In this document: positions 42,503 through 64,000 of the stretch, piece by piece
Layout: the number at the start of each line of letters is the position of its first letter
Numbering within the stretch: position 1 is the first letter of the stretch
Assembly: GCA_902526005.1 (NCBI GenBank)
Contig: CABZIW010000001.1
Location: forward strand, 3,013-67,012
DNA: 64,000 bases
Direction: 5' to 3'
Source of the DNA: an uncultured Pelagibacteraceae bacterium
GTDB lineage: Bacteria > Pseudomonadota > Alphaproteobacteria > Pelagibacterales > AG-422-B15
Translations under genes and position numbers: made by a program
The notes under the pieces: generated by a model
What the model was told of the DNA's origin: nothing
What the model saw: the letters and a program-made list of their open reading frames with translations, nothing else
Database searches by the model: none

Positions 42503-42811
42503 ATGAGTTTAATAAAATCAAAACTTATTCAAAATATTACTGAAGCGAACCCTCATCTTTTTGTAAGAGATGTTGAGAGAATTGTTAATACAATTTTCAA
42601 TGAAATAACTCAATCTTTAGCTGACGGTAAAAGAGTTGAATTAAGAGGCTTTGGAGCATTTTCAGTTCAACACAGAAAACAACGTACTGGTAGAAACCCA
42701 AGAACTGGGGAGGCTGTAAATGTTGAGGAGAAATATATCCCGCGTTTTAAGACCGGAAAAGAACTTAGATTAAAACTAAATAAACAAGAAAACTCTTCTA
42801 ACGAGAGTTAG
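42503..42811 (+). CDS. ihfB: Integration host factor subunit beta
   Basis: [27 protein letters not shown]; conserved position after rpsA. Confidence 0.95.
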
Positions 42812-42834
42812 AAAGATTTCATAAAACAAAAATT

Positions 42835-43527
42835 TTGACTAAAAACCCAATTTACTGCGCTATTGATACAAGTTGTATTGATGATGCAGATAGAATTATT
42901 AATGAAATTTCACCTCATATTGGCGGGATCAAATTAGGTCTCGAATTCTTTACATCTTGTGGGGTCAAGGGCATTGAAAAAATTTCAAAATATGAACTTC
43001 CATTATTTCTCGATTTTAAACTATACGACATACCAAATACAGTAAAAAAATCACTTCAAAATATTCTCTCTTACAACCCTACATATACAACACTTCACGT
43101 TTCGGGGGGTTCCCGCATGTTAAAAGAATGTGTCGATTTAAAAAAAGAATTAAATAGTAATACAAATTTAATTGGTGTTACAATGCTAACAAGTTTTGAT
43201 GATGACTCAATAAATGAAATTGGCATGAGCGGCACAGTTGATAGGAATGTAGATAATCTATCTTCACTGGCATTTGACTGTGGAATGGATGGTATTGTTT
43301 GTAGCCCAATGGAGATAAGAAAAGTTAGAGAAAAATTCGGATCTAAATTAAAAGTTATTGTGCCTGGTATAAGAGAAAATACAAATAACTCAGATGATCA
43401 AAAAAGAACACTTTCTGCAAAAGAGGCTATTATTGCTGGCGCAGATATTATCGTTGTAGGAAGACCAATTGTTGAATCTGACTCACCAGCTGATGCAGCT
43501 GCATCTATTTTAAAAAGCTTACAGTGA
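42835..43527 (+). CDS. pyrF: Orotidine-5'-phosphate decarboxylase
   Basis: KLGLEFF, DFKLYDIPNT, VTMLTS, VPGIR, VGRPI. Confidence 0.97.
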   Translation: MTKNPIYCAIDTSCIDDADRIINEISPHIGGIKLGLEFFTSCGVKGIEKISKYELPLFLDFKLYDIPNTVKKSLQNILSYNPTYTTLHVSGGSRMLKECVDLKKELNSNTNLIGVTMLTSFDDDSINEIGMSGTVDRNVDNLSSLAFDCGMDGIVCSPMEIRKVREKFGSKLKVIVPGIRENTNNSDDQKRTLSAKEAIIAGADIIVVGRPIVESDSPADAAASILKSLQ

Positions 43528-44144
43528 ACCAATATAAAATCAAAATCTGTGGGGTGATGACTGAAAAAATCGCAAAACATTGTATCAAGTCGAACGTTGA
43601 CTATCTTGGCTTCATATTTAATGTTACAGAATCTCCTCGAAATATTGATTTTTATTTAGCAAGTAAAATACTTAACTCAGTAAGTAAAGAAATTCAGACA
43701 GTAGCTGTAACAAAAAATCCAAGTAAAGAGACAATTCTATCAATTAAAGAACTCCCATTTTCATATATTCAAGTTCATGGAGATCTTACTCCTGATGAAA
43801 TTAAACAAATAAAAAAACTATCTAATAAAAAAATAATAAAAGCATTTAATCTACAAAATGACATAAATAGGGATCACATAGAAAAATATTCTAAATTTTC
43901 AGATTACTATTTATTTGATTCAATATCCTCTGGTTCTGGAAAATCTTTTAATTGGTCATTATTAAAAAATATTACGTTTAGCAGAGATTTTTTTCTATCT
44001 GGAGGGCTTAATATAGAAAACATAAAAGAGGCTATTTCATCAGTTAAAACAAATTATTTTGATTTAAGTAGTGGCGTAGAAGATAAAAACCATGTAAAAA
44101 ACGAATCTAAAATTACAGATTTGTTGGATAAAATTAAAAATTAA
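43524..44144 (+). CDS. trpF: Phosphoribosylanthranilate isomerase
   Basis: KICG, QVHG, LFDS, GSGKSFNW, LSGGL, DLSSGVE. Confidence 0.93.
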   Translation: MNQYKIKICGVMTEKIAKHCIKSNVDYLGFIFNVTESPRNIDFYLASKILNSVSKEIQTVAVTKNPSKETILSIKELPFSYIQVHGDLTPDEIKQIKKLSNKKIIKAFNLQNDINRDHIEKYSKFSDYYLFDSISSGSGKSFNWSLLKNITFSRDFFLSGGLNIENIKEAISSVKTNYFDLSSGVEDKNHVKNESKITDLLDKIKN

Positions 44145-44145
44145 G

Positions 44146-45369
44146 ATGTCGATAAAAAAAGGAGTACCTTTATACGATCAAGCTGATGAGAATGGTTTTT
44201 GGGGCAAGTTTGGAGGGAATTATTTACCTGAACCACTTCTTAAGCCAGCTGATGACTTGCATGCTGCTTTTCAAGAATTAAGACATGATAAAGATTTTCT
44301 CAAAGATCTAGAAAAATTGAGATCAGAATATATTGGTCGACCTACACCTTTTTTTAAACTGGAAAACTTAACAAAAGAACTTGGCGGTGCAGAAATTTGG
44401 ATTAAGCATGAAGCCCAATGTCATGGTGATAGCCATAAATTAAACGGAGCAATAATTAGTTGCCTTATTGCTAAGTATCGTGGTCAGACAGAGATTATAG
44501 GAGATACTGGAGCTGGAATGGCCGGTACGGGTTTGGCTATGGCGGCCAGTAGACTAGGTCTTAAGTCGCGTGTTTTTATGGGTAAAGTAGACTATGAACG
44601 TCAAAAGTTAAATGTAATGAGAATGAAAACTCTTGGCTGTGAAGTAGTGCCAGTAACGTCAGGTTCACAAACACTTGTTGAGGCAGTTTCTGAAACAATG
44701 CGGTATTGGCTTGCAAACTGTGATACGACAGCAATTTGTGTTGGCTCTATTGTTGGAGCTTCTGTTTTTGTTAAACTCTGTGCATTTGGACAGCACGTAA
44801 TCTCTAGGGAAATGTCATCGCAAATGATCAATATATTTGGTGAAATACCAAAAGCTACTTTAGTAGCCGCTGTAGGGGGAGGATCAAGTTCATTTGGTTT
44901 TTTCTGTGATTTTATAGATCATGATCAAATATCTATGCGAGGTGTTGAAGCGGGTGGTCCTGAAAACGATGATAAACTGCATGCGGCACCCCTAACTAAT
45001 GACAGTCCAATTGGAATCCTACACGGAGCTAAACAATATGTTATCCAATCCCCTGACGGTCAAATTCAAGAAACTTCTTCTATAGCAGCTGGGTTGGACT
45101 ATCCCGGGGTTTCTCCGATGCATTGTTATTTGAAAGATGAAGGCCGTGTAACATACACTTCAGCTTCAGATGAAGAGGCTGTTAAAGGTTTTGAAATTCT
45201 TGCGAAAACTGAAGGAATTCAATGCTCAATTGAACCAGCACACGCCATTGCTGACATATGTCGTATTGCTCCTAAAATGGGAAAAGATGAAAAAATTATT
45301 GGTTTAGTATGTGGAACATTAAGTAAAGATGCCCCATTGCTTGCTCAACGTTTGAATATTGAATTATAA
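44146..45369 (+). CDS. trpB: Tryptophan synthase beta chain (divergent active site)
   Basis: IGRPTP, PLP lysine in HKLN, VGGGSS, AGLDYPGVSP, EPAHA; lies between trpF and trpA. Confidence 0.9.
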   Translation: MSIKKGVPLYDQADENGFWGKFGGNYLPEPLLKPADDLHAAFQELRHDKDFLKDLEKLRSEYIGRPTPFFKLENLTKELGGAEIWIKHEAQCHGDSHKLNGAIISCLIAKYRGQTEIIGDTGAGMAGTGLAMAASRLGLKSRVFMGKVDYERQKLNVMRMKTLGCEVVPVTSGSQTLVEAVSETMRYWLANCDTTAICVGSIVGASVFVKLCAFGQHVISREMSSQMINIFGEIPKATLVAAVGGGSSSFGFFCDFIDHDQISMRGVEAGGPENDDKLHAAPLTNDSPIGILHGAKQYVIQSPDGQIQETSSIAAGLDYPGVSPMHCYLKDEGRVTYTSASDEEAVKGFEILAKTEGIQCSIEPAHAIADICRIAPKMGKDEKIIGLVCGTLSKDAPLLAQRLNIEL

Positions 45370-45371
45370 AA

Positions 45372-46172
45372 ATGAGTTTAATAAAAAATGCATTTGAGAC
45401 GAAATCTGAGCAAAACGAAGCTGCTCTTTTAAGTTATACTGTTGCATGCGATCCAAATTTTGAGACAAGCTTAAAAATAATGCATGAGATAGCTAAAAAT
45501 GGAGCAACAGCGCTAGAGATAGGAATTCCTCATAATTGTTGCATCGGAGAAGGAGACAAAATTCAAAATGCTGTTGATCGAGTGCTCAGAAATGATACGA
45601 AAATTGAAGATATTTTCAAATTGATAATAGAGTTTAGAAAGTCAAATAAAGTAACTCCTCTTATATTCATGTTATATTATAATTCAGCACTTCAATACGG
45701 TGAGGATAATTTTATAAGAAAATGCAATGAGATAGGTATCAATGGTCTTATTATTGTTGACTTCCCCTACCCTCAAAATTTTGATTTTGCAAAAAAATGT
45801 AAAGCATCGAATATTACTTTTATACAACTTCTATCACCTACGACAAATGAAGATAGAATGAAAAAGGTAATCAATGACTCTGATATGATTTATTATATTT
45901 CTATGTTAAGTACAACTGGCGGAAAACTTAAAGTTGTACCTGAAGAAATTTTAGAAAAATATAAATTAATAAAGTCCATCAAAAAAGATGTTAATGTGAT
46001 AATCGGTTTTGGAATAACTCCTGAAAATATTAATCAATTTAAACAATCTGATTCAGTGGTAGTTGGAAGTTTCCTTTGTAATAAAATTGAGGAATCAATT
46101 CGTGATGGTAAAGATCCATCAATTGAAATAGGGAAAATTATTTCAGAACTCAACACTGGGCTTTTAAGATGA
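45372..46172 (+). CDS. trpA: Tryptophan synthase alpha chain (divergent)
   Basis: LEIGIP, IQNA, MLYYN, PTT, TTGG, GFGI, VVVGS. Confidence 0.9.
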   Translation: MSLIKNAFETKSEQNEAALLSYTVACDPNFETSLKIMHEIAKNGATALEIGIPHNCCIGEGDKIQNAVDRVLRNDTKIEDIFKLIIEFRKSNKVTPLIFMLYYNSALQYGEDNFIRKCNEIGINGLIIVDFPYPQNFDFAKKCKASNITFIQLLSPTTNEDRMKKVINDSDMIYYISMLSTTGGKLKVVPEEILEKYKLIKSIKKDVNVIIGFGITPENINQFKQSDSVVVGSFLCNKIEESIRDGKDPSIEIGKIISELNTGLLR

Positions 46173-47029
46173 ATTGGATTACACGTCAGCTAAAAAAGAT
46201 TTTACCACAAAAAAAGAAGTCATTAGACATACCTGTAGATAGTTGGCAAACTTGTAAACGCTGTAAGTCAGCAAATTATATAGATGATTTACGTAAAAAT
46301 TTTTACTTATGCAGCTGTGGAAGTCCATTCTCTTGCCCGCCAAGAGAGCGATTTAAATATTTGTTTGACAATTCTAAGTGGGAAGAAGTTCCGTACGATA
46401 CTTCTTTCAAAGATTTCTTAAATTGGAAAGACCGTATCTCCTATAAAGAAAGGGTTCAAAAAAGTATTGAGGCAACTGGTCAGGATGAGGTGGGAATAAT
46501 TGCAAAAGGAGAAATTAATGGAACTAAAGTTTGTTGTATATCAATGAATTTTTTGTGGGCTGGCGGGTCTGTCGGGCATAATTTTGGTGAGTGTGTTATT
46601 AAAGCGGCTGAAACAAGCAGAGAAGAAAACTTACCACTTGTTATTTTTACTGAGTCTGGTGGAGCTCGAATGATGGAGGGAGCGATATCACTAATGCAAC
46701 TCCCACGAATGACAGTTGCTATACAAATATTTAAAGACATGGAACAAAGACAACCATCAATTCTTTTTTCGTGCTCACCAACCACTGGAGGTCTATCAGC
46801 ATCATTAGCAAATATTTGTGATTTCACACTTGCTGAACATGAAACAGATTTGATTGCGTTCGCTGGAAAAAGAGTGCTTGACGGATTTAACGATGAAACA
46901 ATTCCTGAGGATTTTCAAACTGCTATTAGCCTAAAACGAAATGGATTTCTGGACGACATTATTGAAAGACCAAACCAAAAAGAGAAAATATCAACTTTAA
47001 TATCTCTATTACAAAAAAAAGTAGCCTAA
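46169..47029 (+). CDS. accD: Acetyl-CoA carboxylase carboxyltransferase beta subunit
   Basis: C4 zinc finger, GGSVG, ESGGARMMEG, PTTGG, AFAGKRV. Confidence 0.93.
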   Translation: MNWITRQLKKILPQKKKSLDIPVDSWQTCKRCKSANYIDDLRKNFYLCSCGSPFSCPPRERFKYLFDNSKWEEVPYDTSFKDFLNWKDRISYKERVQKSIEATGQDEVGIIAKGEINGTKVCCISMNFLWAGGSVGHNFGECVIKAAETSREENLPLVIFTESGGARMMEGAISLMQLPRMTVAIQIFKDMEQRQPSILFSCSPTTGGLSASLANICDFTLAEHETDLIAFAGKRVLDGFNDETIPEDFQTAISLKRNGFLDDIIERPNQKEKISTLISLLQKKVA

Positions 47030-48322
47030 TTGTCAATCTCTGATCAACAAATCAAAAAAATTTTGGATGAATTTATGAGTCTTCATCCTAAAAAAATTGA
47101 TATGTCGCTTGACCGAATTAGGTCGATATTAGATAAATTGGGAAGCCCTCATAGATCTATTAACAACTGTATTGCTTTTGTTGCTACAAATTCCAAATTT
47201 AGTGTATTAAGATTCCTCCAAGAGATACTTCGTTATAACAATAAATCTACTTCAGCACATATAAGTCCTCATTTAATAAAATATAATGAGCGATTTGAGC
47301 TCCAGGACAATCAAGTATCAAATGAAAAGTTTTATGAATCACTAAAAAAAATTCGCAGATTGATTGGATCTGATAATATTACATTTTTTGAGGCACTTTC
47401 AGCATGTTTTTTTGATATGTTGTCTAGTGTTGAGAGTGATTATACGCTTATAGAGGCTGGCCTTGGAGCCAGACTCGATTGTTCAGTGGGAGACATAGAC
47501 CCGCTCATTTCAGTTATTGGACCAATTTCTTATGACCATATGGATTTCCTATCAGATAAAATTGAGCTCATTGCCTACGAAAAAAGTGCAATTATCAAAA
47601 GGAATAAATTCGCAATCATTGGTTATCAACCATATCCTGAAGCACTTCAAATCCTTTTGGATCAAGCTGAATTTAGGGAGGCAAAAACCTTCACGTATGG
47701 TATCGATTGGATTATTCAAGAAAGAAATAATTATTACATTTATACTGATGAAACAAAATCATTTGAGTTCCCACGTTTTAAAAAACATGGAGGGTTTCAG
47801 ATGTATAATCTTGGCCTGGCTATAGCTTCAGCATCAAAACTCAAAGATATTAAAATTGATGATTTTCTAAAAAAAGAAAAATACCAAGATGTAATCATTC
47901 CAGGTAGATTTCAAAAACTGGAAAATACAAAACTAAACGAAATATCAAATAATAAATTAGAGATTATATTAGATGGTGGGCATAACCCGGGAGCTTCTGT
48001 AGCCCTCAATGAAACTATAAAAAAAATGCCAAAAAAAGATTTATGTATTGTATTGGGTATGCAGCGACAAAAAGATCCTATAGCATTTATAAACAATATA
48101 GAAAATATAAGTTGTATAAAGACGGTAAATATTCCTGAAGAAGAAAATAGCTATGATGCAAACGTTTTAAAGAAAAAACTCTTAGGTTTTAATTATAACG
48201 TTAAAAATTCAACTTCAGTCGAGTCAGCAATCTCAGATATTAACGACGAATATCCTGAGGCAAGGGTTTTGATAGTTGGAAGTTTATATTTAGCGGGAAA
48301 AGTAATAGAATTATTCAGCTAA
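47030..48322 (+). CDS. folC: Folylpolyglutamate synthase/dihydrofolate synthase
   Basis: SPHL..YNERF, TFFEA, EAGLGARLD, YDH, IAYEK..IIK, PGRFQ, DGGHN, GSLYLAG. Confidence 0.92.
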   Translation: MSISDQQIKKILDEFMSLHPKKIDMSLDRIRSILDKLGSPHRSINNCIAFVATNSKFSVLRFLQEILRYNNKSTSAHISPHLIKYNERFELQDNQVSNEKFYESLKKIRRLIGSDNITFFEALSACFFDMLSSVESDYTLIEAGLGARLDCSVGDIDPLISVIGPISYDHMDFLSDKIELIAYEKSAIIKRNKFAIIGYQPYPEALQILLDQAEFREAKTFTYGIDWIIQERNNYYIYTDETKSFEFPRFKKHGGFQMYNLGLAIASASKLKDIKIDDFLKKEKYQDVIIPGRFQKLENTKLNEISNNKLEIILDGGHNPGASVALNETIKKMPKKDLCIVLGMQRQKDPIAFINNIENISCIKTVNIPEEENSYDANVLKKKLLGFNYNVKNSTSVESAISDINDEYPEARVLIVGSLYLAGKVIELFS

Positions 48323-48643
48323 ATTATCTTCAATCCATTGGCGAAGTTTATCTTCCGAGACAGCGCCTACCTGCTGACTAATCACTTCTCCATCTTTAAA
48401 TATAAGTAACAGAGGTATCCCCCTTACGCCATAAAAAGTTGGTTTCTGAGGATTATCATCAATATTACATTTAACAATTGATACTTTGTCTGAGAGACTC
48501 TCACTCAATCTTTCGAGTGGCTCTGAAATCATTTTACATGGTCCACACCACGGAGCCCACCAATCTACGACCACCGGTTTCACCTTAGATGCTTCCAATA
48601 CGTCTCTATCAAAATCTTGATCGTTTGTTTCAATTGTAGCCAT
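48311..48643 (-). CDS. trxA: Thioredoxin
   Basis: WAPWCGPCK, YGVRGIP. Confidence 0.98.
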   Translation of the reverse strand: MATIETNDQDFDRDVLEASKVKPVVVDWWAPWCGPCKMISEPLERLSESLSDKVSIVKCNIDDNPQKPTFYGVRGIPLLLIFKDGEVISQQVGAVSEDKLRQWIEDNLAE

Positions 48644-48760
48644 AGTTTGAACCTTCCTATATATTAAATTAATTCAAAAAATAGTGTTTATTAACGATAA
48701 GTCAACGACTAAGACCGTTCATTTTTATTGAAAATTGTGGATTTTCTAAATTTTTAGACT

Positions 48761-49648
48761 TTATAAAAGACCGCGCTTTTGATATTGCTGCACAGATGTT
48801 TTACCTACTTTAAAACCTTTTTCCTGAAGTTCCCGAGCAATTGCTCTTTGAGACAATCCTTTAGCACGGAGTGCTTTAGCTGTAGGTAACCATTCTTTTG
48901 CTTTTTCCAAGGCTAGTTCTTGTGCTTTTTCTGTCCCAGTTTTTTCTTCATAAGAATATAATGTTTTCATAACTCTACCATCAGCATACTTTATATATCC
49001 TTTTTTGATAGCTTCATTAACGTTATTGGCGATTGTCAGATTTGAGTCGATAAATGTTTTATTATTTTCATACGTAATTCCTCTAAGCCTATCATTTAAG
49101 TTTTTCACTCTTTCATTTATTAAATTTATATCTTTTTTATCATTTGCATCTAAGCTTCCTTCTTCCTCAATAAAAATCTTACTTATTTCTAAAAATGATT
49201 TTTTATTACAATTTTCAATAAAAAATAAAATTTGATCATTTGTAAATGTTGTTCTGCTTCCTGTTGGTCTTTCAGTTGGATTAAAACTTTGATCTTTGTT
49301 TTTATAATCCTCTTTTAGGTAATCCTGTGATGCAGTATCGGATGGTTTTTTTCCGGCAAGTATGTCTTTAATTATGCTGTCTTCTCTTTCAAGAAACCTG
49401 AGCACATGTCTCACAGTTTGCTCACCAACTATTTTCATCTTTCTTGAAATATCAAGTGCTGAGAGTCCCTCATTTTCTCGAATTTGCCAAATTCTTATAA
49501 GTTGATTTTGGTCTAATTTAGTAGATCCGTATCCTCCTAAACTTAAATATTCTTTATATTTAATTTTAAGTTGTGAATCGCTATATCTAATTTTGTTAAA
49601 TTCATTTGCTCTGCTCCTTGTAGCACTTCCTGCTTTCAAATATTTCAT
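48761..49648 (-). CDS. Hypothetical protein with three putative HTH segments
   Basis: GLSALDISRKMKIVGEQTVRHVL; FTNDQILFFIENCNKKSFLEISKIF; KGLSQRAIARELQEKGFKVGKTSVQQY. Confidence 0.6.
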   Translation of the reverse strand: MKYLKAGSATRSRANEFNKIRYSDSQLKIKYKEYLSLGGYGSTKLDQNQLIRIWQIRENEGLSALDISRKMKIVGEQTVRHVLRFLEREDSIIKDILAGKKPSDTASQDYLKEDYKNKDQSFNPTERPTGSRTTFTNDQILFFIENCNKKSFLEISKIFIEEEGSLDANDKKDINLINERVKNLNDRLRGITYENNKTFIDSNLTIANNVNEAIKKGYIKYADGRVMKTLYSYEEKTGTEKAQELALEKAKEWLPTAKALRAKGLSQRAIARELQEKGFKVGKTSVQQYQKRGLL

Positions 49649-50700
49649 AATTTTTTTATATTATTATCTTCGATTTTAATTTCATTGTCACCTGTAACAG
49701 ATGGGAAAACTTCTATTCGTTTGAGCTTATCCTCAATTTTTTCAGATTTATCGGTCATTTGAATATCTTCAAGTTGAGATACTTTTGGTATTAGCTTTGA
49801 AGTCCAACTACTAACAGCTTTATTATAAGCTCCTGTAGCTGTACTTAATCCACTTCCAACTCTGTTTAAATGTTTAGTAAAGGTATTCAATCTATTATGT
49901 ATTTCATATCCAATTTTGCTAATTTTCTTAGCATTTTGTTCCATATCTTTTTGAACATTAAATAATTTGATCGTTTTAAGCACAGCATAAAGGATTGGTG
50001 GTGTACAAATAATAACACCCATATTTCTAGCTTTTGTATCCAAATCAGGCATCTGAGACAGAGCAAGTAAATATAAATTTATATTATACATATACATTAG
50101 TGTAAACTCTGGACTGCCCTCGAAGTATTGATGATATTTTTTTTTATGCAGGGCTTCGGCATGCTTTAATACATCCTCTGCATGTTGTTTTAAAAAACGA
50201 TGTTTGTCATCTTCACTTTCTACATTTTGTGATTGCGCAAATGAGGCAATACTCACTTTTGAGTCAATTACAATTGTACCCCCACGTGTTGAGTCAAGAT
50301 AGACGTCTGGTTTAACTTTTTGATCAAAACTACCAACAGTATCTTCCCATTTATAATTAACACCTTCAAGCAAGCCCACATCATCTAGCATTTCTCTAAG
50401 ACTTTCTTCACCCAAATCACCTTGTAAACTTTTATTTGTTAGGGCTTCAGTCCATTTATGATAATTTTTTGATAAGTAATCTAGTGAGTTGCTTGTTTTT
50501 TCCTGACCTGATTTCACCGTACTACTTAGACCATCAACCGCACTTTTAACACCTGCGATTTGATTAAGTAAATTATCAAGATCATTATGCTCTGCAGATG
50601 ATTGATGTTTTTTTTCCGAGTGAATATTATTAAATAAATAAGCTACTACTGCGATCGCAAGGAAAGATATTATTAGTGATATTATAGTTATGACTTCCAT
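49645..50700 (-). CDS. rmuC: RmuC family DNA recombination protein (PD-(D/E)XK nuclease)
   Basis: N-terminal TM and coiled coil, QGDLGEESL, KPDV....IVIDSKVS, HAEALHKKKY, ICTPPILYAVL, YNKAVSS. Confidence 0.88.
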   Translation of the reverse strand: MEVITIISLIISFLAIAVVAYLFNNIHSEKKHQSSAEHNDLDNLLNQIAGVKSAVDGLSSTVKSGQEKTSNSLDYLSKNYHKWTEALTNKSLQGDLGEESLREMLDDVGLLEGVNYKWEDTVGSFDQKVKPDVYLDSTRGGTIVIDSKVSIASFAQSQNVESEDDKHRFLKQHAEDVLKHAEALHKKKYHQYFEGSPEFTLMYMYNINLYLLALSQMPDLDTKARNMGVIICTPPILYAVLKTIKLFNVQKDMEQNAKKISKIGYEIHNRLNTFTKHLNRVGSGLSTATGAYNKAVSSWTSKLIPKVSQLEDIQMTDKSEKIEDKLKRIEVFPSVTGDNEIKIEDNNIKKL

Positions 50701-50703
50701 TGA

Positions 50704-52392
50704 TTATATAATTCTATATTTTTCCCAATCATTTTTAAATAATTTTAATTTTTCTGGATGATCTATCATTATTTTAAGCAAAATTGTTAGACCGTCTGAA
50801 AAAGCTCTTTGACCGTCTGCAAGTCCAAAAGCATGCTGTAACTCATGCGTAAGCGTTGACAGGATTGATCCAAAGCTATGAGAAAAAAGTTTTTCATTGA
50901 GTAATACAGTTTTTTCATCAAATTGACTTTGTGAGTCTTTTAATTCGCCTAAAACTTTATCAGACTTTAAAACCTTAAATTGGATATTATACAGTGCTCC
51001 ATATTCGGACTCTACTTGCACAAGATCAACAGCTTCTAAACAATAAAAAACACCGGCAAAACCAGGTGCAACTTCGCGCAGACATTGTAAAAGGAAATTT
51101 ATAGCCTTTGTTTCTTTGGAATTGAGCAATCTAATTGCCTCTTTTTTGGCTTTTTCCTCTGCCTTTTTCTTTTTTTCCTGCAAAATCTCAACGCTTGATT
51201 TAATGCCCAATCTGCTGAAGTAACTTGGTAACTTTTTATACCCCTTCTTCTCAAAGTGTCTGTCTTGACTATATATCTTTGGTTCAAGTTCCCAGTACAA
51301 CCTTCCATAAATGCTGCTGTAACGAGGTGAGCTTTCGGAATAGTAACCTTTGATACGTCCAATAGGTGAAAATAACTTTTCAAGATAATCTTTTGACTCT
51401 TCCGATTTTAAATTCCAGACATTATTACATATACTGCTTAATAGTGGGTGCCCTTGTCCTTTTAACCACAATGGCTTCAATTCTTCCAAAATAAATTTTA
51501 TTGCAGGATTTAATGCACTATCTCTATAGTGCAGTCCAGACTGAGCGACAATATTAAAAAGCTGAGATCTTAAGTCTTGCGTAAACGAATTTCTATCGCG
51601 ATCACTTGCAACTTTGTTTTCAATCTTTTTATATTTTTTTTCAATTACAAGAATGAGAGGTAAGTCAATTTCACCTCTATTTAGTCCATTGTAAAAAATT
51701 ATTCCGTTTTCTTTATTAGATTTATAAAAAGATATATGATTATATGAATGTAGTAATTCACCTAAATGTGGATTTTCTGGCCAGAAAAAATGATCTTCTA
51801 GACCACACTTAAATGCATCGCGTATATTTTCTTTAAATGTGTTAATAACAAACTTTGAACCAGTTTCAGAATTAGAAATTTTAAAAAAATTATAAATTAA
51901 TGGTCTTAATCCAACCTCATTTTCTTCAGGTGAAACAGAGACAGCTACAGCTTCATTCCCTGATATAAATATTGGATATTCAATTCCTAATTTAATTAGA
52001 CTAACTACTGAGATCAGGCTGCCTTCCCCAAATTTTCCAAGTTGGGTTTCATCATTTGCTTTTGTTCCTCCTATATAAAACAGTAACTTCAAGTTGTAAT
52101 CAGAAGGGCCTTGTACAATAATTTGTCCAGATTTAATTGATGTTTTAATATCAGAAATACTAAACCCTTGTGAGATAGCACCATCCCTTGCATTTTGAAG
52201 AACTTCTCTACAAATAAAAGATGGGGAATAATCAACACCCCAATCCAATGAAACGCTGCTCTCAAATGAGTAATCATATTGAACTTTTTTTAAACCTGGG
52301 ACTTTTTTAAGCAATTTAGAAATTTCATTAATTTCATTTTTAGCAATTAGTGCTGTATCTTTTTTTATTGAATTTTTTATTTGTTTTCTCAT
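50704..52392 (-). CDS. GHKL-type ATPase fused to a C-terminal zinc-metallopeptidase motif
   Basis: REVLQNARDG (N-box), QLGKFGEG (G2 box), and HELQHAFGLAD (HExxHxxGxxD) near the C terminus. Confidence 0.75.
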   Translation of the reverse strand: MRKQIKNSIKKDTALIAKNEINEISKLLKKVPGLKKVQYDYSFESSVSLDWGVDYSPSFICREVLQNARDGAISQGFSISDIKTSIKSGQIIVQGPSDYNLKLLFYIGGTKANDETQLGKFGEGSLISVVSLIKLGIEYPIFISGNEAVAVSVSPEENEVGLRPLIYNFFKISNSETGSKFVINTFKENIRDAFKCGLEDHFFWPENPHLGELLHSYNHISFYKSNKENGIIFYNGLNRGEIDLPLILVIEKKYKKIENKVASDRDRNSFTQDLRSQLFNIVAQSGLHYRDSALNPAIKFILEELKPLWLKGQGHPLLSSICNNVWNLKSEESKDYLEKLFSPIGRIKGYYSESSPRYSSIYGRLYWELEPKIYSQDRHFEKKGYKKLPSYFSRLGIKSSVEILQEKKKKAEEKAKKEAIRLLNSKETKAINFLLQCLREVAPGFAGVFYCLEAVDLVQVESEYGALYNIQFKVLKSDKVLGELKDSQSQFDEKTVLLNEKLFSHSFGSILSTLTHELQHAFGLADGQRAFSDGLTILLKIMIDHPEKLKLFKNDWEKYRII

Positions 52393-52419
52393 TATTTTTT
52401 CCTTATTCGATTAAATTTA

Positions 52420-52617
52420 TTAATATGGCGAAATGGAGACCCAAAAGCACTCAGATTCATCGTCCGGCCCTTTAGCTAAGCCTTTGATATCAAATACTCT
52501 CTCATCCTCATAATGAGTAATCTTCAATTCATTCGCATAAACAGCTAATTCTGAATAATCTCTAAACTTATAATCCTCAAGAGGAGCGCAGAGTAATACT
52601 ATAATAGTTTCGATCAT
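52420..52617 (-). CDS. Small hypothetical protein (65 aa)
   Basis: Fills the operon gap, 10 nt after the previous stop; no motif recognised. Confidence 0.55.
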   Translation of the reverse strand: MIETIIVLLCAPLEDYKFRDYSELAVYANELKITHYEDERVFDIKGLAKGPDDESECFWVSISPY

Positions 52618-52627
52618 CTAAATTTTT

Positions 52628-52852
52628 CTAATTAATAAGGTTCTTATTTTCATGAAACCATTTCCAAACCTTATTTTTGGTTTTAAAATATTTGATAGCT
52701 CTATCTAGGCTTTCATTAAGAAAATCTCTAAAATCTTGTTTCTGACCTTCAAGAGCAAGCAACTCACTTAACTCATTAATTTTTTCAATTGTATCCTCAT
52801 TAAGAAGTAATACTTTTTTGATATTAGGATCATTTTCTTTTTTTAATTTCAT
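52628..52852 (-). CDS. Small protein, possible ribbon-helix-helix DNA-binding fold (74 aa)
   Basis: KKVLLLNEDTIEKINELSE...FRDFLNESLDRAI strand-helix-helix pattern; 4-nt overlap with upstream gene. Confidence 0.55.
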   Translation of the reverse strand: MKLKKENDPNIKKVLLLNEDTIEKINELSELLALEGQKQDFRDFLNESLDRAIKYFKTKNKVWKWFHENKNLIN

Positions 52853-54372
52853 CTCATTGCCTCTAACTCTTTTTCTTTATTTTCAATATATGTCCGCGCT
52901 GAAACCAAGAGTTGAAATTTTTCATTTGGAAGATCTGGGTTACTATTCTTATTATTATTTAGATCGTCATTATCAATTTCGTTGGCTTTGCAAATCTTTT
53001 CTAATTCATCTTTGGCAGTTTCAATTGTTAAATAGTTTCTGTATTCATAATTTTCACTTAGCAATCTGTTGGCTATTTGATGTTCTATATCTCTAATATC
53101 TGATTGGGACATGACAGATGGTTCATTATCATAAATTATTTTTTTTGCTATATGTACCATACGCATATCTGTGAAAGCTTTTATTTTTTTATACTTATCT
53201 TTGTACTCATCTAATTGGTGAAATTCACGCGCAAGTGCCTTATCTGAATTAGTAAAAAAACTTTCATAAATCATATCTTCGTAATACTCAGATTTTTTTT
53301 TAGCAAACATTTCATCGTTATCGACAGTGAATGCCGAAACAACCTTATTTTTGTATTGATTATTATTCTCTAAATTCTCATGCATTTTTTGTATTTCTTC
53401 TAAATTACCAAGACTGCCTATTTGTTCTTTGGATAGGTTTGCAACCTTAGGATCGATCAAAATTGGATTTTTGTTTAAATAAATTTTTCTAAATATTCTA
53501 TTTTTTCGATCATCTTTTCTTTTAGATATTTCTGCAGGGGATAATAAAAAATCATCCTCTGTAAAATTTTTCAGATCAACAAATATAGCAGAACCGTCAT
53601 TACCCATCCCGCAGTAGGAATATGTATACAAATATTCATTTCCTCTCATGAAAAAAGTCGACAAAAAATAATTTTTTGAATTACTCAGTAAATCAGAAAC
53701 TCTCTCTTTATGTGCAGTCTGTTGCATTTGTTTCCATATTTCTGGATCTTGTTTTGAGTATTTTTTGACAAAATTCATCATTAGTTTTGTATCAACAATT
53801 GCTGTATGCAATTCACCTTCAGCTTTAATAGAATTTTCATCACAAATAAGGCCAAGTTGAAAACTAGGTTTGCCAGTATTTGGATGTAAAGGAACTTTTA
53901 AATCACTTTTACCAAAACTTTGTAAGGCATGCGCAAAGCTTAGTGCATCGATTTCGTAATTAAAGTTACCGGACGGAGATTTGGTATTCATGAAGTATAA
54001 ATCATCGAGCTGAAGGTTCATATAGGCATTGGCAACTCTAAATATGCCTCTGTCAAAGTTGTTGTTCCATGCTATCCAGTAAATATTGTATTTTTGCCGC
54101 CACTCACTAAATTTTTTATTAATCACTCTACTTAACTCATAGCTTGACATATTTTGTCGTAAATTTTCTTCTGTTAAATTATTTGTGAAACTTGCTCCTG
54201 GGCTTAAAAAATTTGTCTTATTTAAACGACATTTTTCATCGAGGACGTCTTCAATTTCAAAGTTTTCTGGATCAACGAGGATTGCAGTTATTTCCAACAG
54301 CTGTGTAAAGCCTGTATTTGGAATATTGTGTGAACTTTCCGTATCAAAAAAACAATATCTAATATTTGTCAT
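52849..54372 (-). CDS. sbcB: Exodeoxyribonuclease I-like DEDDh 3'-5' exonuclease
   Basis: ExoI FFDTES, ExoII WNNNFDR, GKPSFQLGLIC..N, ExoIII HTAIVD; long ExoI-like C-terminal extension. Confidence 0.75.
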   Translation of the reverse strand: MTNIRYCFFDTESSHNIPNTGFTQLLEITAILVDPENFEIEDVLDEKCRLNKTNFLSPGASFTNNLTEENLRQNMSSYELSRVINKKFSEWRQKYNIYWIAWNNNFDRGIFRVANAYMNLQLDDLYFMNTKSPSGNFNYEIDALSFAHALQSFGKSDLKVPLHPNTGKPSFQLGLICDENSIKAEGELHTAIVDTKLMMNFVKKYSKQDPEIWKQMQQTAHKERVSDLLSNSKNYFLSTFFMRGNEYLYTYSYCGMGNDGSAIFVDLKNFTEDDFLLSPAEISKRKDDRKNRIFRKIYLNKNPILIDPKVANLSKEQIGSLGNLEEIQKMHENLENNNQYKNKVVSAFTVDNDEMFAKKKSEYYEDMIYESFFTNSDKALAREFHQLDEYKDKYKKIKAFTDMRMVHIAKKIIYDNEPSVMSQSDIRDIEHQIANRLLSENYEYRNYLTIETAKDELEKICKANEIDNDDLNNNKNSNPDLPNEKFQLLVSARTYIENKEKELEAMR

Positions 54373-54375
54373 AAT

Positions 54376-54762
54376 TTAATATAAAAATTTCTTTGTTTTT
54401 TTATTTAATTCATTTTTTTTAGTAAAGGGCCTTAAGTATCTTTGCTTAAGGAAACGATCTAATCTTTCATTTCTTATTTTTGATAATTCGTTTGAGTAAT
54501 TTTTCCAATGAAATGTAAAGGCATTTTCATATAATATTTCATGAGCAGTTTTTAATTTGTAAGACAATAATTCAACTCGTTCTCTGGTTTCTTTATAGAT
54601 TTTTAATTTTTTATTAAAAATTTTTTTTTGTCTCCAATACATAAATAATTTATTTCTTATGTCACTATCTAGAGCCAGGCAAGAAAGGAAAGAAAAAAAT
54701 GTAAGAACAAACCTAGCTCTAGAAGCAATCGACGCCGAAACTTTTTTTACAATATGTATCAT
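54376..54762 (-). CDS. Basic hypothetical protein (128 aa)
   Basis: 4-nt overlap with XRE gene and 3-nt gap to the exonuclease; no motif recognised. Confidence 0.6.
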   Translation of the reverse strand: MIHIVKKVSASIASRARFVLTFFSFLSCLALDSDIRNKLFMYWRQKKIFNKKLKIYKETRERVELLSYKLKTAHEILYENAFTFHWKNYSNELSKIRNERLDRFLKQRYLRPFTKKNELNKKTKKFLY

Positions 54763-55406
54763 ATATCCTCATCTCTTAACCATGTATTTTGATATTCAAT
54801 TTCATCACTAATTTTAACAACATTATTGGATGAGATTATTTCAGTATTTTTAATGAAACGATTTCTACTTTGCAAAATGACAATAACCTGGTTGATATGA
54901 TTTCCCTTTTTTAAAAAGTAGTTGATGTTTTCATAATTTAACTGTCTAACAATTTCCTTAAGATTTACTTCGTACTCTGTTTTTTTATTCTCAAGTATTT
55001 GATATTCGTTATGGTCAAAATCATAAATAGATTTTTTTTCCCACATTTTTTCAATCTCTATTAAAGCCTGACTTAGTTTAAAAAGATTTTCTTTAAAACT
55101 AACCGTAACCACAGTTTTTAGATATTCACTAGCTTCATGCCAAGTATCATCATATTCGATGTAAGGAATTTTTGATTTCAGGACAGCACAAAGACTTCTT
55201 ATGTCTTGGTAGGCCTGATTTGTATCTCGTAACGACTCCATTCTTGACTCGAGAATAATTCGTTTATCATTTGGTATTGGATGCTCCCCTCTTTCATAAG
55301 CCTCATATGTTCTAAGTGGCAAATCTAATTTTAGAGACATGTCGCGTTGCGTTATTTTTAATTCCCTTGTTCTTAAAATCTTTAACTTTTCAGAAAAATC
55401 ATTCAT
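54759..55406 (-). CDS. XRE-family HTH transcriptional regulator (start reassigned to MNDFSEKLK)
   Basis: KLKILRTRELKITQRDMSLKLDLPLRTYEAYERGE; the track's TTG at 55415 overlaps the -10 box. Confidence 0.85.
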   Translation of the reverse strand: MNDFSEKLKILRTRELKITQRDMSLKLDLPLRTYEAYERGEHPIPNDKRIILESRMESLRDTNQAYQDIRSLCAVLKSKIPYIEYDDTWHEASEYLKTVVTVSFKENLFKLSQALIEIEKMWEKKSIYDFDHNEYQILENKKTEYEVNLKEIVRQLNYENINYFLKKGNHINQVIVILQSRNRFIKNTEIISSNNVVKISDEIEYQNTWLRDEDI

Positions 55407-55413
55407 GCTAGGC

Positions 55414-55442
55414 AATTTATCGAAATTCTAGCGACATGTCAA
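55414..55442 (-). promoter_or_regulatory. Sigma70 promoter of the XRE-led operon, with palindromic operator candidate
   Basis: TTGACA (55442-55437), 17 bp, TAAATT (55419-55414); GACATGTC palindrome overlaps the -35 box. Confidence 0.65.
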
Positions 55443-55447
55443 CATAT

Positions 55448-55469
55448 AATCCGCAATAAATCCGCAATA
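55448..55469. repeat. Tandem 11-bp direct repeat AATCCGCAATA x2
   Basis: 55448-55458 and 55459-55469 are identical. Confidence 0.8.
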
Positions 55470-55506
55470 ATATTTTATCAAATATATCAATGCTTTACAT
55501 GGATAA

Positions 55507-55674
55507 TTAGCTTTGGATAATTGATTTATATTTTAAAATCTGAGGTTCTTTTTTAGATTCTAAAATATTTATTAATCGTTCTTCTTCATTAATAATCACC
55601 CGAAAAAATTTTTTTTGACCCACATGATCTTCTACCTGCTCAATCCGTATGGATATGAGATTATTATTTTTCAA
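55507..55674 (-). CDS. Small hypothetical protein (55 aa), absent from ORF track
   Basis: AAGGAGGT SD 5 nt before TTG; MKNNNLISIRIEQVEDHVGQKKFFRVIINEEERLINILESKKEPQILKYKSIIQS*. Confidence 0.6.
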   Translation of the reverse strand: MKNNNLISIRIEQVEDHVGQKKFFRVIINEEERLINILESKKEPQILKYKSIIQS

Positions 55675-55736
55675 TTTTTACCTCCTTTTTTTAAATTCAA
55701 CATTAAATAAAACGAGTCTCTTAAGCTTTTCAATCA

Positions 55737-56405
55737 TCATATTTCACTGAGATCAAAAAGATTGTGCCTGCATTTTCTTTGAGCTTCATTAAAATATTTC
55801 CTAAATTCTTTTATATTCCAATTGTTATGCATTATATCAAAGTATATAGAAGGATCCTTGCCGTATTGTGTTTTTTGTAACTCAATTTCAAAGCTATCCT
55901 TGTCTCCTAAAAATGCGATGACTTCTTCAGCAGTAAGTAAGTTTTCAAACATGAACTGTGTAAAATAATATCCGTCTTGAATTCGAGTTCCTATAATACC
56001 AACTTTAGATAAGTACTCATCACCTGGAACATATTTTACTAAAACTTCAAATATATCATCACTCTGTGGAATTGACTCCATAATACTTGTAATTTGAAAT
56101 GTGAGACCCACCTCATCGCAATTATCACTATCCAGCATGAAGGTAAGGTAATCTTCTTTTTGAATTTGTCCTTTTGTAGCAATAAATATTATTGGTGCAG
56201 TTTCTGATTTATGAATATACCAAATACTGTTGACAGATTCATTATTTGAGGAATTCTCAATGCTATAATCTTCGGCCAATAATTGTTTTTGAAACACTAT
56301 GACTAAATTTAATAATATTAAAAAAATAAGTAATTTTTTAATTTTTAAAAAATTTATCGTATTTTTTTTATACTTACTTTGTATAAATTTTTTTAGTTGA
56401 ATCAT
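55737..56405 (-). CDS. Exported or membrane-anchored hypothetical protein (222 aa)
   Basis: AAGGAG SD; basic N-region then hydrophobic stretch LLIFLILLNLVIVF. Confidence 0.7.
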   Translation of the reverse strand: MIQLKKFIQSKYKKNTINFLKIKKLLIFLILLNLVIVFQKQLLAEDYSIENSSNNESVNSIWYIHKSETAPIIFIATKGQIQKEDYLTFMLDSDNCDEVGLTFQITSIMESIPQSDDIFEVLVKYVPGDEYLSKVGIIGTRIQDGYYFTQFMFENLLTAEEVIAFLGDKDSFEIELQKTQYGKDPSIYFDIMHNNWNIKEFRKYFNEAQRKCRHNLFDLSEI

Positions 56406-56480
56406 GCATTCTCCTTGTTTTTATTTAGAATACAATGATCATATGTTTTAAATTTGATATTCTTTTGTCAGAATTATGTT

Positions 56481-57425
56481 CTAGAACAAATCATCAAGCG
56501 TGATTGTGCTTGGTCGAGCGTGACTCATATCTACTGAGTATTCTATATTGTGAATACCTTCTTTTGCTTCAGTAATTCTTGGAACGTCTACATTTTCATA
56601 TATTAGAAGGCTTTTTTGAGCTGTTTGATAATCAAACTTCGTTTTAGTTATGTCAGTTTTTTCAGTTATCATATCTACTATTGTATCCAACTTAAAAATT
56701 AGATAGTTATCATCAACCTTTTCTCTAATTTTATTAATTAACTCCTCTAAGGAACATCCATCACTTACTTTTTTTGCAATGATTGAAACAATAAATATTT
56801 TATCGGACTTACTGTGAAGTTGTTGATACTTAAATCTATGGATCCTACTATTATTTTTTGATGATTTGATTTCAACAGCCTTATCTAATGAGTAAAAGTC
56901 CCAAATATCTCTTGCTTTTTCTGATTGATAAGAAGTAAGCGCTTCCAACGTATTTGAAGTATTATCTATAACGAACAGTTCACTCCATAATCCTTGTAAT
57001 CCCTTAGTGTTATTTTTCTTTTCAATAAAGATACTTTTTAGTGTAAATAGATATTTAGAAAGTGTCTTATTTGAAGTTATACTTTCTAAATCATCAATAA
57101 TTTGATTGACTATTTTTAAAAATGCACTTTGCTCATTAACGTTGTCACTAAAAAATTCTAAGACAGTATACTGATCTTTGGTTATTTGATTATTTTTTTC
57201 TATTGTTTCGTAGGTATTAGTATCATTGACTCGCCATAACTCTAGTAAATTTATTCTTTCACTAATTACATTATTATCATTAACCTTGAATAGGATTACC
57301 GGCTTGTTTGTCAACGATTTTGCAATATAATGTTCTTTTTTTATTTGAATTTTTTCTACTATATACTTACCGTCTTTCTCACTTTTTGATGGTTCAATAT
57401 TGTAAAACAAATCAATTAAATTCAT
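56481..57425 (-). CDS. PD-(D/E)XK motif protein, DUF4420 family
   Basis: GLQGLWSELF, WDFYSLDKAVEIKSS; directly after the Z1 gene with a 4-nt overlap. Confidence 0.85.
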   Translation of the reverse strand: MNLIDLFYNIEPSKSEKDGKYIVEKIQIKKEHYIAKSLTNKPVILFKVNDNNVISERINLLELWRVNDTNTYETIEKNNQITKDQYTVLEFFSDNVNEQSAFLKIVNQIIDDLESITSNKTLSKYLFTLKSIFIEKKNNTKGLQGLWSELFVIDNTSNTLEALTSYQSEKARDIWDFYSLDKAVEIKSSKNNSRIHRFKYQQLHSKSDKIFIVSIIAKKVSDGCSLEELINKIREKVDDNYLIFKLDTIVDMITEKTDITKTKFDYQTAQKSLLIYENVDVPRITEAKEGIHNIEYSVDMSHARPSTITLDDLF

Positions 57426-60004: not shown

Positions 60005-60098
60005 GATTTCTAGTTAAATATTAAATGGTATTATTCAAGTTTTTTGTTGTTCATTATACAACGTAGAACTAACTATATGAAAAGTATAATTTTTATTT

Positions 60099-61724: not shown

Positions 61725-61729
61725 AGATT

Positions 61730-63085: not shown

Positions 63086-63145
63086 TTTTGTAATTTTCTC
63101 AGATTCCTAACGAGAATCAAGTTTAGTTGCTACTAATATTTAATT

Positions 63146-63427
63146 TCAATCGTTAATTTTTTTTTCTAAGCATCTAAAGTCTTTTTCCAATCTGTTTCCA
63201 TCAAAATTGATGTGGCAAATATTCAACTGATGCCTTTGGCACCAAATTTGAAGACCTCTATCGGTGAAGCCTACATCAATTCTTGAATAATCCTGTAGAG
63301 ATTTTGCATCTGTCTGACCGCTGATAAATTCATCAGAACATTTAACACAAACAATTGGCTCTTTGATTTGATTTAACAAATAACTAAGTTTTTCTATATC
63401 TTTCTCTAGATAATTGTCTTCACTCAT
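63146..63427 (-). CDS. Hypothetical protein with CxxC...CxxH (93 aa)
   Basis: CVKC and WCQRH motifs; 4-nt overlap with the nuclease gene. Confidence 0.75.
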   Translation of the reverse strand: MSEDNYLEKDIEKLSYLLNQIKEPIVCVKCSDEFISGQTDAKSLQDYSRIDVGFTDRGLQIWCQRHQLNICHINFDGNRLEKDFRCLEKKIND

Positions 63428-63825
63428 TCACACCAGTCTTTCTTATTATTTTTATCATACACAACTCCTAAACCGTTTAAGACCATTATTTTTGAAACGT
63501 TTTCACCATCTACAATGATATAAGCTAAGATTCTATCAAAAAAATCTCTATTGTATTCAGTTTCAAATTCAATTTTTTTCCCGTCAGAAATATATTTATT
63601 AATATAGTTACGTGCTTCAATGCCAAGCGTATATTCTTTTTCACATTTAGGATGTGAAATTTCAGGTGTATCAAGATCGAGTAGTCTAACTTTATCATTA
63701 TTTTCTTGATATGTTACATAGCATGTATCGCCATCATAACAAAACAAGTCATTTTGTTTTCTTATTTGTATGTCTGCAAATGAATTAGAGATTAATAAAA
63801 TTAGAACAGAGAAAATTCTTATCAT
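63424..63825 (-). CDS. Thermonuclease (SNase-like) with signal peptide
   Basis: YDGDT, VRLLDLDTPE, RDFFDRILAY. Confidence 0.9.
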   Translation of the reverse strand: MIRIFSVLILLISNSFADIQIRKQNDLFCYDGDTCYVTYQENNDKVRLLDLDTPEISHPKCEKEYTLGIEARNYINKYISDGKKIEFETEYNRDFFDRILAYIIVDGENVSKIMVLNGLGVVYDKNNKKDWCE

Positions 63826-63834
63826 TAATAAATA

Positions 63835-64000
63835 TTAATTGATAATTTCGTGAGGGTATACTCCTAGTAAATTATTTTTTTCGATCCAGACTTTAATTTC
63901 TTTCTCATTATCTGTAATTGTAATCCTACACCAACTTGAGTCACACTTATTAATTTTTGCATGAACAAAAGGGTCTATTTTAGCAAGTATCTTATTTTTG
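63835..64000 (-). CDS. C-terminal end of a bacterial SH3-domain protein (partial)
   Basis: Hand translation KNKILAKIDPFVHAKINKCDSSWCRITITDNEKEIKVWIEKNNLLGVYPHEIIN*; C..WC...W..K..L.GVYP pattern. Confidence 0.7.
   Translation of the reverse strand, partial: KNKILAKIDPFVHAKINKCDSSWCRITITDNEKEIKVWIEKNNLLGVYPHEIIN

Follow-up and report, generated by a model that had tools for sequence, protein, structure and literature searches.

Introduction

This study concerns trpB, the gene for the beta subunit of tryptophan synthase, in a stretch of 64,000 nucleotides (nt) of DNA from an uncultured Pelagibacteraceae bacterium (assembly GCA_902526005.1, contig CABZIW010000001.1), the whole of which is hereafter called the window. 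The closest described sequences are those of Kagan et al. 2008 (Genome Biol 9:R20, PMC2395257), who found that a trpB_1 cluster from SAR11 of the Sargasso Sea was distant from other TrpB_1, reasoned that the trpB of P. ubique, being its only copy, must be functional, and suggested an early split for the SAR11 cluster. That report dealt with phylogenetic distance only and did not address catalytic residues. Window positions 42503-48322 agree with its description of the cluster, and the window TrpB belongs to the same clade as the TrpB_1 of P. ubique HTCC1062 and of the Sargasso SAR11, with D109, A115, S236, V167 and C377 in common (Salmonella numbering). It is nevertheless 52-56% identical to the main-type cluster, from which it differs in having M and not Y at 114 and in the additional changes G84D, P194A and R379T, and its partner TrpA carries D60E where main-type SAR11 have Asp60.

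Salmonella typhimurium TrpB (PDB 1k8x) has the same fold, length, pairing with TrpA and listed catalytic residues as the window TrpB, but is only about 40% identical to it, and the window protein differs in E109D, Q114M, H115A, K167V, N236S, R379T and an altered PHPYP stretch. Several of these positions have assigned roles: the indole sub-site is walled by beta-His115 and beta-Phe306, stabilisation of the closed state falls to beta-Gln114, via Asn145 and Arg148, and the alpha site has alpha-Glu49 and alpha-Asp60 as its catalytic pair (Ghosh et al. 2022 review, PMC9512447). K167, D56, S377 and G181 are unmentioned in that review; K167 and alpha-D56 are positioned at helix H6, the tunnel and the interface (PMC8187860). 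The Salmonella laboratory mutant beta-E109D (Brzovic et al. 1992, cited in PMC9512447) likewise has Asp for the indole-activating Glu; however, it alters one residue of an otherwise canonical enzyme, whereas Asp109 in the window is natural, fixed in its clade and accompanied by changes at 108, 114, 115, 186, 196 and 198 around the pocket. The TrpB2 and TrpB-like proteins (TIGR01415, NF009057) are also divergent beta homologues with the same fold. In contrast to these, the window TrpB scores far below the TrpB2 cut-offs, falls among the TrpB1 proteins and has a linked trpA. The TrpB2 enzymes studied are dependent on O-phosphoserine.

We conclude that the window gene probably encodes a working tryptophan synthase beta of a form particular to its clade, with a remodelled indole pocket and a remodelled interface to the alpha subunit. 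The catalytic-residue content of the SAR11 enzyme, the joint loss of K167 and alpha-D56, the sequence types II and III defined below and the mosaic structure of the locus were not found in the searchable literature, and a literature search for TrpB E109D found nothing.

Active-site residues of the window TrpB

Residue numbers were transferred from Salmonella (St) TrpB, the sequence of which is identical at 397/397 positions to PDB 1k8x_B; St K87, E109, Q114, H115, N236, S377, K167 and G84 correspond to window K98, D120, M125, A126, S248, C389, V178 and D95. The canonical comparison comprised 88 TrpBs in two sets. One contained 58 full-length representatives, from a library of 1.8 billion proteins clustered at 50%, which were chosen as canonical by E109/Q114/H115 and hence offer no independent test of those three positions; the other contained 30 TrpBs from 30 other alphaproteobacterial families, taken without residue-based selection. 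Against these we set about 100 SAR11 TrpBs with Asp at St 109 (the D-clade), in which type I denotes the main form and type II the sub-lineage of the window allele.

The first-pass annotation had described a full-length, intact gene in which the lysine that binds pyridoxal phosphate (PLP) is kept (K98, in HKLN) and the canonical motifs are replaced by DTGAGMAG, GGGSS and CGTLSKD. All of this is borne out: the motif coordinates agree at 44434 and 45330, HKLN being residues 97-100 (44434-44445), and the open reading frame (ORF) of 407 amino acids (aa) has zero internal stops and aligns with TrpB1 from end to end. At St 109 Glu is absent and Asp120 stands instead, so that the carboxylate is preserved. 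E109, Q114 and H115 are each present in 100% of the 30 alphaproteobacterial TrpBs, while 100% of D-clade sequences have D at St 109 and A at St 115; at St 114, 97% of type I sequences carry Y, and type II carries M. The phosphate loop retains its glycines and Ser235 and has Ser for Asn236, a residue that is N in 98-100% across the 88 canonical TrpBs and S in 100% of the D-clade. St K167 is K in 100% of the 30 alphaproteobacterial TrpBs and in 75% of the library representatives, and V or I in 100% of the D-clade. The states equivalent to D120, A126, S248 and V178 occur in 0/88 canonical TrpBs.

The residues that were singled out as unusual in the first-pass annotation stand in part. E109, H115 and N236 are indeed near-invariant in canonical TrpBs, but at St 377 Cys is present in 56% of canonical alphaproteobacterial TrpBs and Ser in 43%, and S377C (C389) is ordinary for the Alphaproteobacteria and should be dropped from the list of oddities. 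The other changes in this motif, R379T, G380L and D381S, are derived states; position 379 is R in 91-100% of canonical sequences, whereas type I has D and type II has T. Further changes that had not been listed are K167V (V178), R379T, G84D (D95, which precedes the PLP histidine by two residues), Y186I and the loss of the PxPxP prolines at 194-198. Gly at St 84 is found in 98% of canonical sequences and 95% of type I, and G84D is specific to type II; P194A is likewise confined to type II, while P196V/I and P198V are common to the whole D-clade. The PLP-binding, serine-binding and closed-state residues H86, K87, T110, R141, N145, S235, D305, E350 and K382 are all present in the window TrpB.

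At least 90% conservation in both canonical sets is seen at 86 positions, 14 of which are altered throughout the D-clade, five more in the window allele only and four in the main type only, giving 19 changed positions in type II and 18 in type I. As a side observation, the side chains at the 14 positions replaced clade-wide hold eight nitrogen atoms in the canonical state, three in type I and none in the window allele. This may, speculatively, fit nitrogen thrift in SAR11 proteomes, or it may be coincidence.

The partner subunit TrpA

TrpA positions are numbered from Salmonella TrpA, identical to PDB 1a50_A, in an alignment of 129 TrpAs. E49, Y175, T183, G211, G213, G234 and S235 are conserved canonically and present in all SAR11 forms. 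Three other positions are changed in the SAR11 TrpAs that are paired with D109 TrpBs: D56, which is D in 100% of canonical TrpAs, is T, A or C (C in the window); G181, G in 100% of canonical TrpAs, is S; and F54, canonically F, is H. In the enteric enzyme alpha-Asp56 pairs with beta-Lys167 in a salt bridge, and in SAR11 beta K167V co-varies with alpha D56T/A/C and alpha G181S. Because both partners of this pair are gone, the sequences point to a co-evolved, working complex with a different inter-subunit wiring.

TrpA position 60 follows another pattern. Asp is found there in 96% of canonical TrpAs and in 100% of those of type I, and Glu in 100% of those of types II and III (45549-45551 in the window); Glu at this position also occurs in 1/27 canonical alphaproteobacterial TrpAs.

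Family assignment, selection and function

Among Pfam models the window TrpB matches only the general PALP domain. With TIGR00263, the NCBIfam trpB equivalog, it scores 406.5 bits against a cut-off of 392.45, within a range of 393-406 bits for SAR11 TrpBs (393 for a complete SAR11 genome); full-length TrpBs from 119 other alphaproteobacterial families score 562-660 bits. The TrpB2/TrpB-like models TIGR01415 and NF009057 gave 132.1 and 123.5 bits, below their cut-offs of 518.85 and 366, and models for other fold-type II PLP enzymes (CysK/CysM, threonine synthase, Ser/Thr dehydratases) gave at most 43 bits against cut-offs of 266-550. Solved TrpB1 structures match residues 17-402 of the window TrpB (E 1e-104, about 42-44% identity). 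An AlphaFold2 model built with 53 relatives as input has a mean predicted local distance difference test score of 81 and a predicted template modelling score of 0.84, and Foldseek aligns this predicted structure with the TrpBs of P. furiosus, S. pneumoniae and M. tuberculosis at template modelling scores of 0.86-0.90 and root-mean-square deviations of 2.2-2.8 Å.

The low TIGR00263 score (406 bits against about 640 in other alphaproteobacteria), the alteration of 19/86 near-invariant positions and the D60E change in TrpA are what would be expected if the gene were decaying, with catalytic residues drifting under relaxed selection in a streamlined or tryptophan-scavenging lineage. This is scarcely conceivable given the selection on the locus, since ratios of nonsynonymous to synonymous substitution (dN/dS) are 0.02-0.07 for trpB and 0.03-0.09 for trpA (0.19-0.43 for trpF). 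The window trpB and two independent Tara metagenome contigs are 91% identical in nucleotide and 99% in protein sequence (dN/dS 0.023, dS 0.225), and the corresponding values for the relative L102 are about 73% and 87% (dN/dS 0.06). Among type II relatives TrpB is the most conserved protein of its gene block, at 87% identity against 66-75% for TrpA and 49% for TrpF, there are zero stops or frameshifts, and the same replacements are fixed across hundreds of genomes. The gene is thus under strong purifying selection, and its substitutions are not private to this assembly, as they would be under one of the refuting conditions set in the first-pass annotation. Its proposal of a lineage-specific rewired synthase rather than decay is favoured by the clade-wide fixation, the sole trpB, the complete pathway and a dN/dS of 0.02.

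Its other proposal, a non-indole beta-substitution enzyme, is not supported. Under such repurposing serine would be joined mainly to a non-indole nucleophile (a thiol, another heterocycle or a phenol) and tryptophan synthesis would be secondary or lost. The tyrosine-synthase entry 8egy is among the PDB matches of the window TrpB, and engineered TrpBs with this Glu altered reportedly take other nucleophiles. The changed residues are moreover those that set nucleophile use in laboratory work, E109 and H115 belonging to the indole sub-site (PMC9512447). We nevertheless consider repurposing very unlikely. The window trpB is the sole TrpB match in the host genome (a 23-contig draft of 1.23 Mb, 92% complete), in which all seven trp genes are present, with trpE, trpG, trpD and trpC together on contig C10, and it lies tightly packed between trpF and trpA with gaps of 1-2 nt. 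TrpA retains E49, T183 and the phosphate-binding glycines and would therefore still make indole alongside, and the Glu to Asp change preserves the carboxylate.

Cultured SAR11 also argue against repurposing. Strains HTCC1062 and HTCC7211 are cultured in artificial seawater to which nothing is added but pyruvate, glycine, methionine and vitamins (PMC8437039). In G060, a genome of the same order on a single contig of 1,308,759 bp, the only TIGR00263 match is a 412-aa TrpB with the motifs VVGDTGAGYAG, GGGSSA and NSCGDAKKD, followed by a TrpA that reads PHNTPIADG. From its length we take this genome to be that of HTCC1062, and because its sole TrpB has the same motif set and HTCC1062 grows without tryptophan, TrpB with D109/A115/S236/V167 therefore supports tryptophan prototrophy in cultured SAR11. 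By extension from the main type, the type II allele of the window would do the same, and we infer, since it is the only copy and since SAR11 in culture are prototrophic, that the window TrpB catalyses the formation of L-Trp from indole and L-Ser.

Proposed mechanism

The window gene may be pictured as follows. On the long SAR11 stem about 14/86 near-invariant positions were replaced and then frozen (among them A108G, E109D, Q114Y/M, H115A and N236S, with K167V, at a less strictly conserved position, also fixed), and TrpA changed at the matching interface positions, D56 to T, A or C and G181 to S. The textbook beta chemistry would be unchanged, with PLP on K98 and L-Ser converted to the aminoacrylate, which would then be attacked by indole delivered from TrpA, with the D120 carboxylate standing in for Glu109 at the indole N1-H. 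In the wall of the indole pocket A126 and M125 (the latter being Y in most SAR11) would replace His115 and Gln114, and these pocket changes may make up for the shorter Asp side chain. Because the alpha-Asp56/beta-Lys167 contact is absent on both sides, signalling between alpha and beta is probably wired differently. A stronger form of this proposal is that SAR11 tryptophan synthase has a different catalytic and allosteric set-up, with Asp and a Tyr/Met-Ala pocket activating indole instead of a Glu-Gln-His set supposed to be universal, deletion of the alpha-Asp56/beta-Lys167 switch and, in the window allele and type III, alpha-Glu60; we regard this as possible but rather doubtful.

Several points weigh against a functional, rebuilt synthase. 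The margin of the window TrpB over the TIGR00263 cut-off is very small, and the AlphaFold2 model is weak at residues 288-320 and holds no ligand geometry. In Salmonella beta-E109D is said to be badly impaired with indole (attributed to Brzovic et al. 1992), so that Asp109 in SAR11 would seem to need compensation, and D60E, which type II TrpA has, reportedly lowers alpha activity in the enteric enzyme (attributed to Nagata et al. 1989). The type II allele is known from uncultured cells only, and the strains for which prototrophy is shown are of type I. The equation of G060 with HTCC1062 is moreover made from genome length. In the review of Ghosh et al. 2022 (PMC9512447) the interaction made by the position-109 carboxylate is held to be essential to indole activation. 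Finally, a literature search on SAR11 or Pelagibacter TrpB returned only the 2008 cluster and no biochemical characterisation.

Distribution and phylogeny of the SAR11 TrpB clade

A word-indexed search of 5.8 billion proteins returned three close clusters at 99, 87 and 87% identity to the window TrpB and, beyond a gap, thousands of proteins at 52-56% identity, the named ones being Pelagibacteraceae; D120, A126, GGGSS and C389 are invariant in the alignment of these relatives. A scan of one genome per GTDB species, in which candidates had to match at least one of two peptide patterns ([VI]GDTGAG[YM]A being one), gave more than 535 stretches encoding a relative of the window TrpB; the best 80 of these all come from Pelagibacterales, including cultured Pelagibacter strains, and GDTGAG[YM]AG and GGGSS are present in 80/80. 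A degenerate DNA pattern for GDTGAGxAG occurs in exactly one copy in 244/301 Pelagibacterales genomes (176/214 high-quality ones), and has zero occurrences in the reversed control.

In maximum-likelihood trees all D109 sequences are monophyletic, with a Shimodaira-Hasegawa-like approximate likelihood-ratio test (SH-aLRT) value of 100, and the window TrpB groups with 14 SAR11 sequences, that of the genome of HTCC1062 size among them. The stem of the D-clade is 0.8-1.1 substitutions per site long, exceeding most canonical TrpB diversity, and the clade has 18 synapomorphies, including A108G, E109D, H115A, K167V, V201C, N236S, G310S and A348S. Such a stem may be read as fast vertical descent, or as an ancient horizontal transfer from a non-alphaproteobacterial donor that already had D109/A115. 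In agreement with transfer, the canonical alphaproteobacterial TrpBs form a group of their own (SH-aLRT 93) that excludes the SAR11 clade, and Kagan et al. suggested an early split. However, the placement of the SAR11 clade relative to the Alphaproteobacteria has a support of 30 and carries a warning of long-branch attraction, and a HMMER search of the 1.8 billion representatives found one full-length, motif-bearing representative (55% identity to the window TrpB), which is SAR11-like. The other matches were at most 44% identical, except for a few fragments (213-311 aa) at 47-60%, several with GDTGAGYAG, and AETGAGQHG was present in 100/118 matches with a readable motif region. We therefore regard a foreign origin as unlikely.

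The tree contains three deep D-clade sub-lineages, namely the main type, the form of L009 and L010 and the window type. Because all three have similar root-to-tip lengths, with distances from their node to the tips of about 0.45-0.5, the window allele appears from the tree to be old and rare rather than fast-evolving. Faster evolution of type II than of type I was considered and rejected on these distances and on the similar numbers of changed positions (19 and 18/86). The sequences L009 and L010, from single-cell genomes AG-365-D07 and AG-390-C19, carry QSHKLNNA, GDTGAGMAG and LICGNAMKD, and so have several features in common with the window allele, yet are only about 54% identical to it.

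About 18% of high-quality Pelagibacterales genomes lack the D-type motif. At least four such pattern-negative SAR11 genomes (G027, G039, G029 and G092, the last of 1,343,202 bp, the genome size of HIMB5) have as their sole TrpB another very divergent form, type III, which with its TrpA occupies the same syntenic site (loci L099, L100, L101 and L159). Type III resembles the window pair in its chromosomal site, its high divergence and a TrpA with D60E. In contrast to the window TrpB, it retains E109, Q114, H115, N236 and K167, with the motifs CESGAGQHY, GGGSN and LCGRGEKD, and its own changes are T110S, G116Y, Q142V, D305Q/T and H353A; in the tree it stands on a long branch of its own, and it is 37-40% identical to the window TrpB. 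The SAR11 trpBA locus is hence unusually plastic. The residues at beta-109/alpha-60 are E/D in canonical enzymes, D/D in type I, D/E in type II and E/E in type III, and a coupled swap of beta-E109D and alpha-D60E, which we considered, was rejected since all four combinations exist.

A divergent block beside a variable island

The local gene order is ihfB/himD (42503), pyrF (42835), trpF, trpB, trpA, accD, folC and, on the opposite strand, trxA; the spacing from trpF through trpB to trpA is 1-2 nt, and trpA and accD overlap (Table 1). TrpBs of the same GTDB genus are only 52-55% identical to the window TrpB, and the divergence extends to its neighbours: trpF is 40-45% identical to same-genus TrpF, whereas pyrF, directly upstream, is 87% identical. 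Against the nearest same-genus genome, G001, full-length ORFs from 17351 to pyrF (43524) show 80-100% protein identity, and identity is then 40% for trpF, 54% for trpB, 49% for trpA, 43% for accD, 48% for folC and 52% for trxA. In steps of 100 nt, nucleotide identity is 84-97% up to 43399 and 68% at 43400-43499. The island at 48.7-63.1 kb has barely any match in G001, and beyond it an ORF at 63427-63834 is again 85% identical. In all, some 19.7 kb of the window (43400-63153) is divergent or replaced, where the equivalent G001 segment measures about 7.6 kb.

Table 1. Positions of the genes, motifs and boundaries discussed, in window coordinates.
Feature	Position	Strand	Remarks
Left breakpoint, pyrF/trpF junction	43400..43588	.	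nt identity to G001; alignment stops at 43588
trpF, phosphoribosylanthranilate isomerase	43524..44144	+	PF00697, E 8.5e-38; first gene of divergent block
trpB, tryptophan synthase beta, 407 aa	44146..45369	+	TIGR00263, solved TrpB1 structures, tree, dN/dS
HGDSHKLN	44422..44445	+	H97-K98 = St H86-K87, PLP Schiff-base lysine, retained; D95 = G84D
GDTGAGMAG, residues 119-127	44500..44526	+	substrate-carboxylate/indole-site loop; canonical AETGAGQHG; A108G, E109D, Q114M, H115A
V178 (St K167)	44677..44679	+	helix H6, alpha/beta interface; K167V
GSIVGASVFV	44743..44772	+	in place of canonical GSxxGPHPYP (St 189-198); prolines 194, 196 and 198 gone
GGGSS, residues 244-248	44875..44889	+	PLP-phosphate loop; canonical GGGSN; N236S
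CGTLSKD, residues 389-395	45310..45330	+	canonical SGRGDKD; S377C, R379T, G380L, D381S
trpA, tryptophan synthase alpha, 266 aa	45372..46172	+	TIGR00262, 187 bits vs cut-off 102; start 2 nt past trpB stop
TrpA loop 2, residues 48-62, LEIGIPHNCCIGEGD	45513..45557	+	E49 retained, D56C, D60E
accD	46169-47029	+	divergent block
folC	47030-48322	+	divergent block
trxA	48311-48643	-	divergent block; block remainder (from accD) spans 46169..48673
Right edge of divergent region	63153	.	blastn to G001 87%, 63153 to 64000

The draft state of the assembly, in 23 contigs, and the abrupt drop in identity at a gene boundary could be taken to mean that the contig is a chimera of two SAR11 populations, produced in assembly or binning, and that its divergence from same-genus genomes has no other cause. 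This is most improbable, since similarity to G001 resumes at 63153 on the same contig and since an independent Tara scaffold, L108, runs from pyrF through trpF and trpB to trxA and RmuC with the same pyrF-trpF junction at 91% nucleotide identity. On L104 the genes follow the order of the window from trpB, by way of trxA, as far as those for RmuC and GHKL. G+C content is alike inside and outside the block (0.338 and 0.327), and a mosaic at this junction is also seen in further same-genus pairs: G001 and G008, in the other direction, are 96-99% identical in trpB-accD-trxA and only 51-69% in aroA-pyrF. L108 has a 100-N scaffold gap within trpA (its positions 2207-2306), which yields a shortened TrpA gene call and no true truncation.

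Most likely, homologous recombination either imported the trpF-trxA block or preserved it as an old allele, in both cases along with the variable island beside it. The island appears to be nuclease- or defence-like, and the travel of core genes with it may be likened to hitch-hiking beside O-antigen loci. Within the block, the FolC P-loop at 47183-47203 reads ATNSKFS, and that of six other SAR11 FolCs at the same site GTNGK[FYGN][SG]; because these six keep GTNGK, the loss of two glycines would seem special to the allele of the divergent block.

Significance

The SAR11 TrpBs lie only 1-14 bits above the NCBIfam cut-off, and annotation pipelines can therefore easily miscall SAR11 as tryptophan auxotrophs. 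The mosaic at pyrF/trpF presents essential core genes that travel with a variable island. Tryptophan synthase is the textbook case of channelling and allostery, TrpB is a workhorse of enzyme engineering, and both fields hold beta-Glu109 to be invariant and essential. SAR11 are the most abundant heterotrophs in the sea, and that so ecologically dominant a clade has replaced Glu109 along with the residues next to it in the pocket and given up a classic contact between the subunits, yet is prototrophic, offers a ready natural experiment, while SAR11 TrpA and TrpB could yield new starting points for biocatalysis. If the changes are not kinetically neutral, the SAR11 enzyme would have a measurably different nucleophile scope, subunit dependence or channelling, and would provide a natural test of which 'essential' residues of tryptophan synthase are needed.

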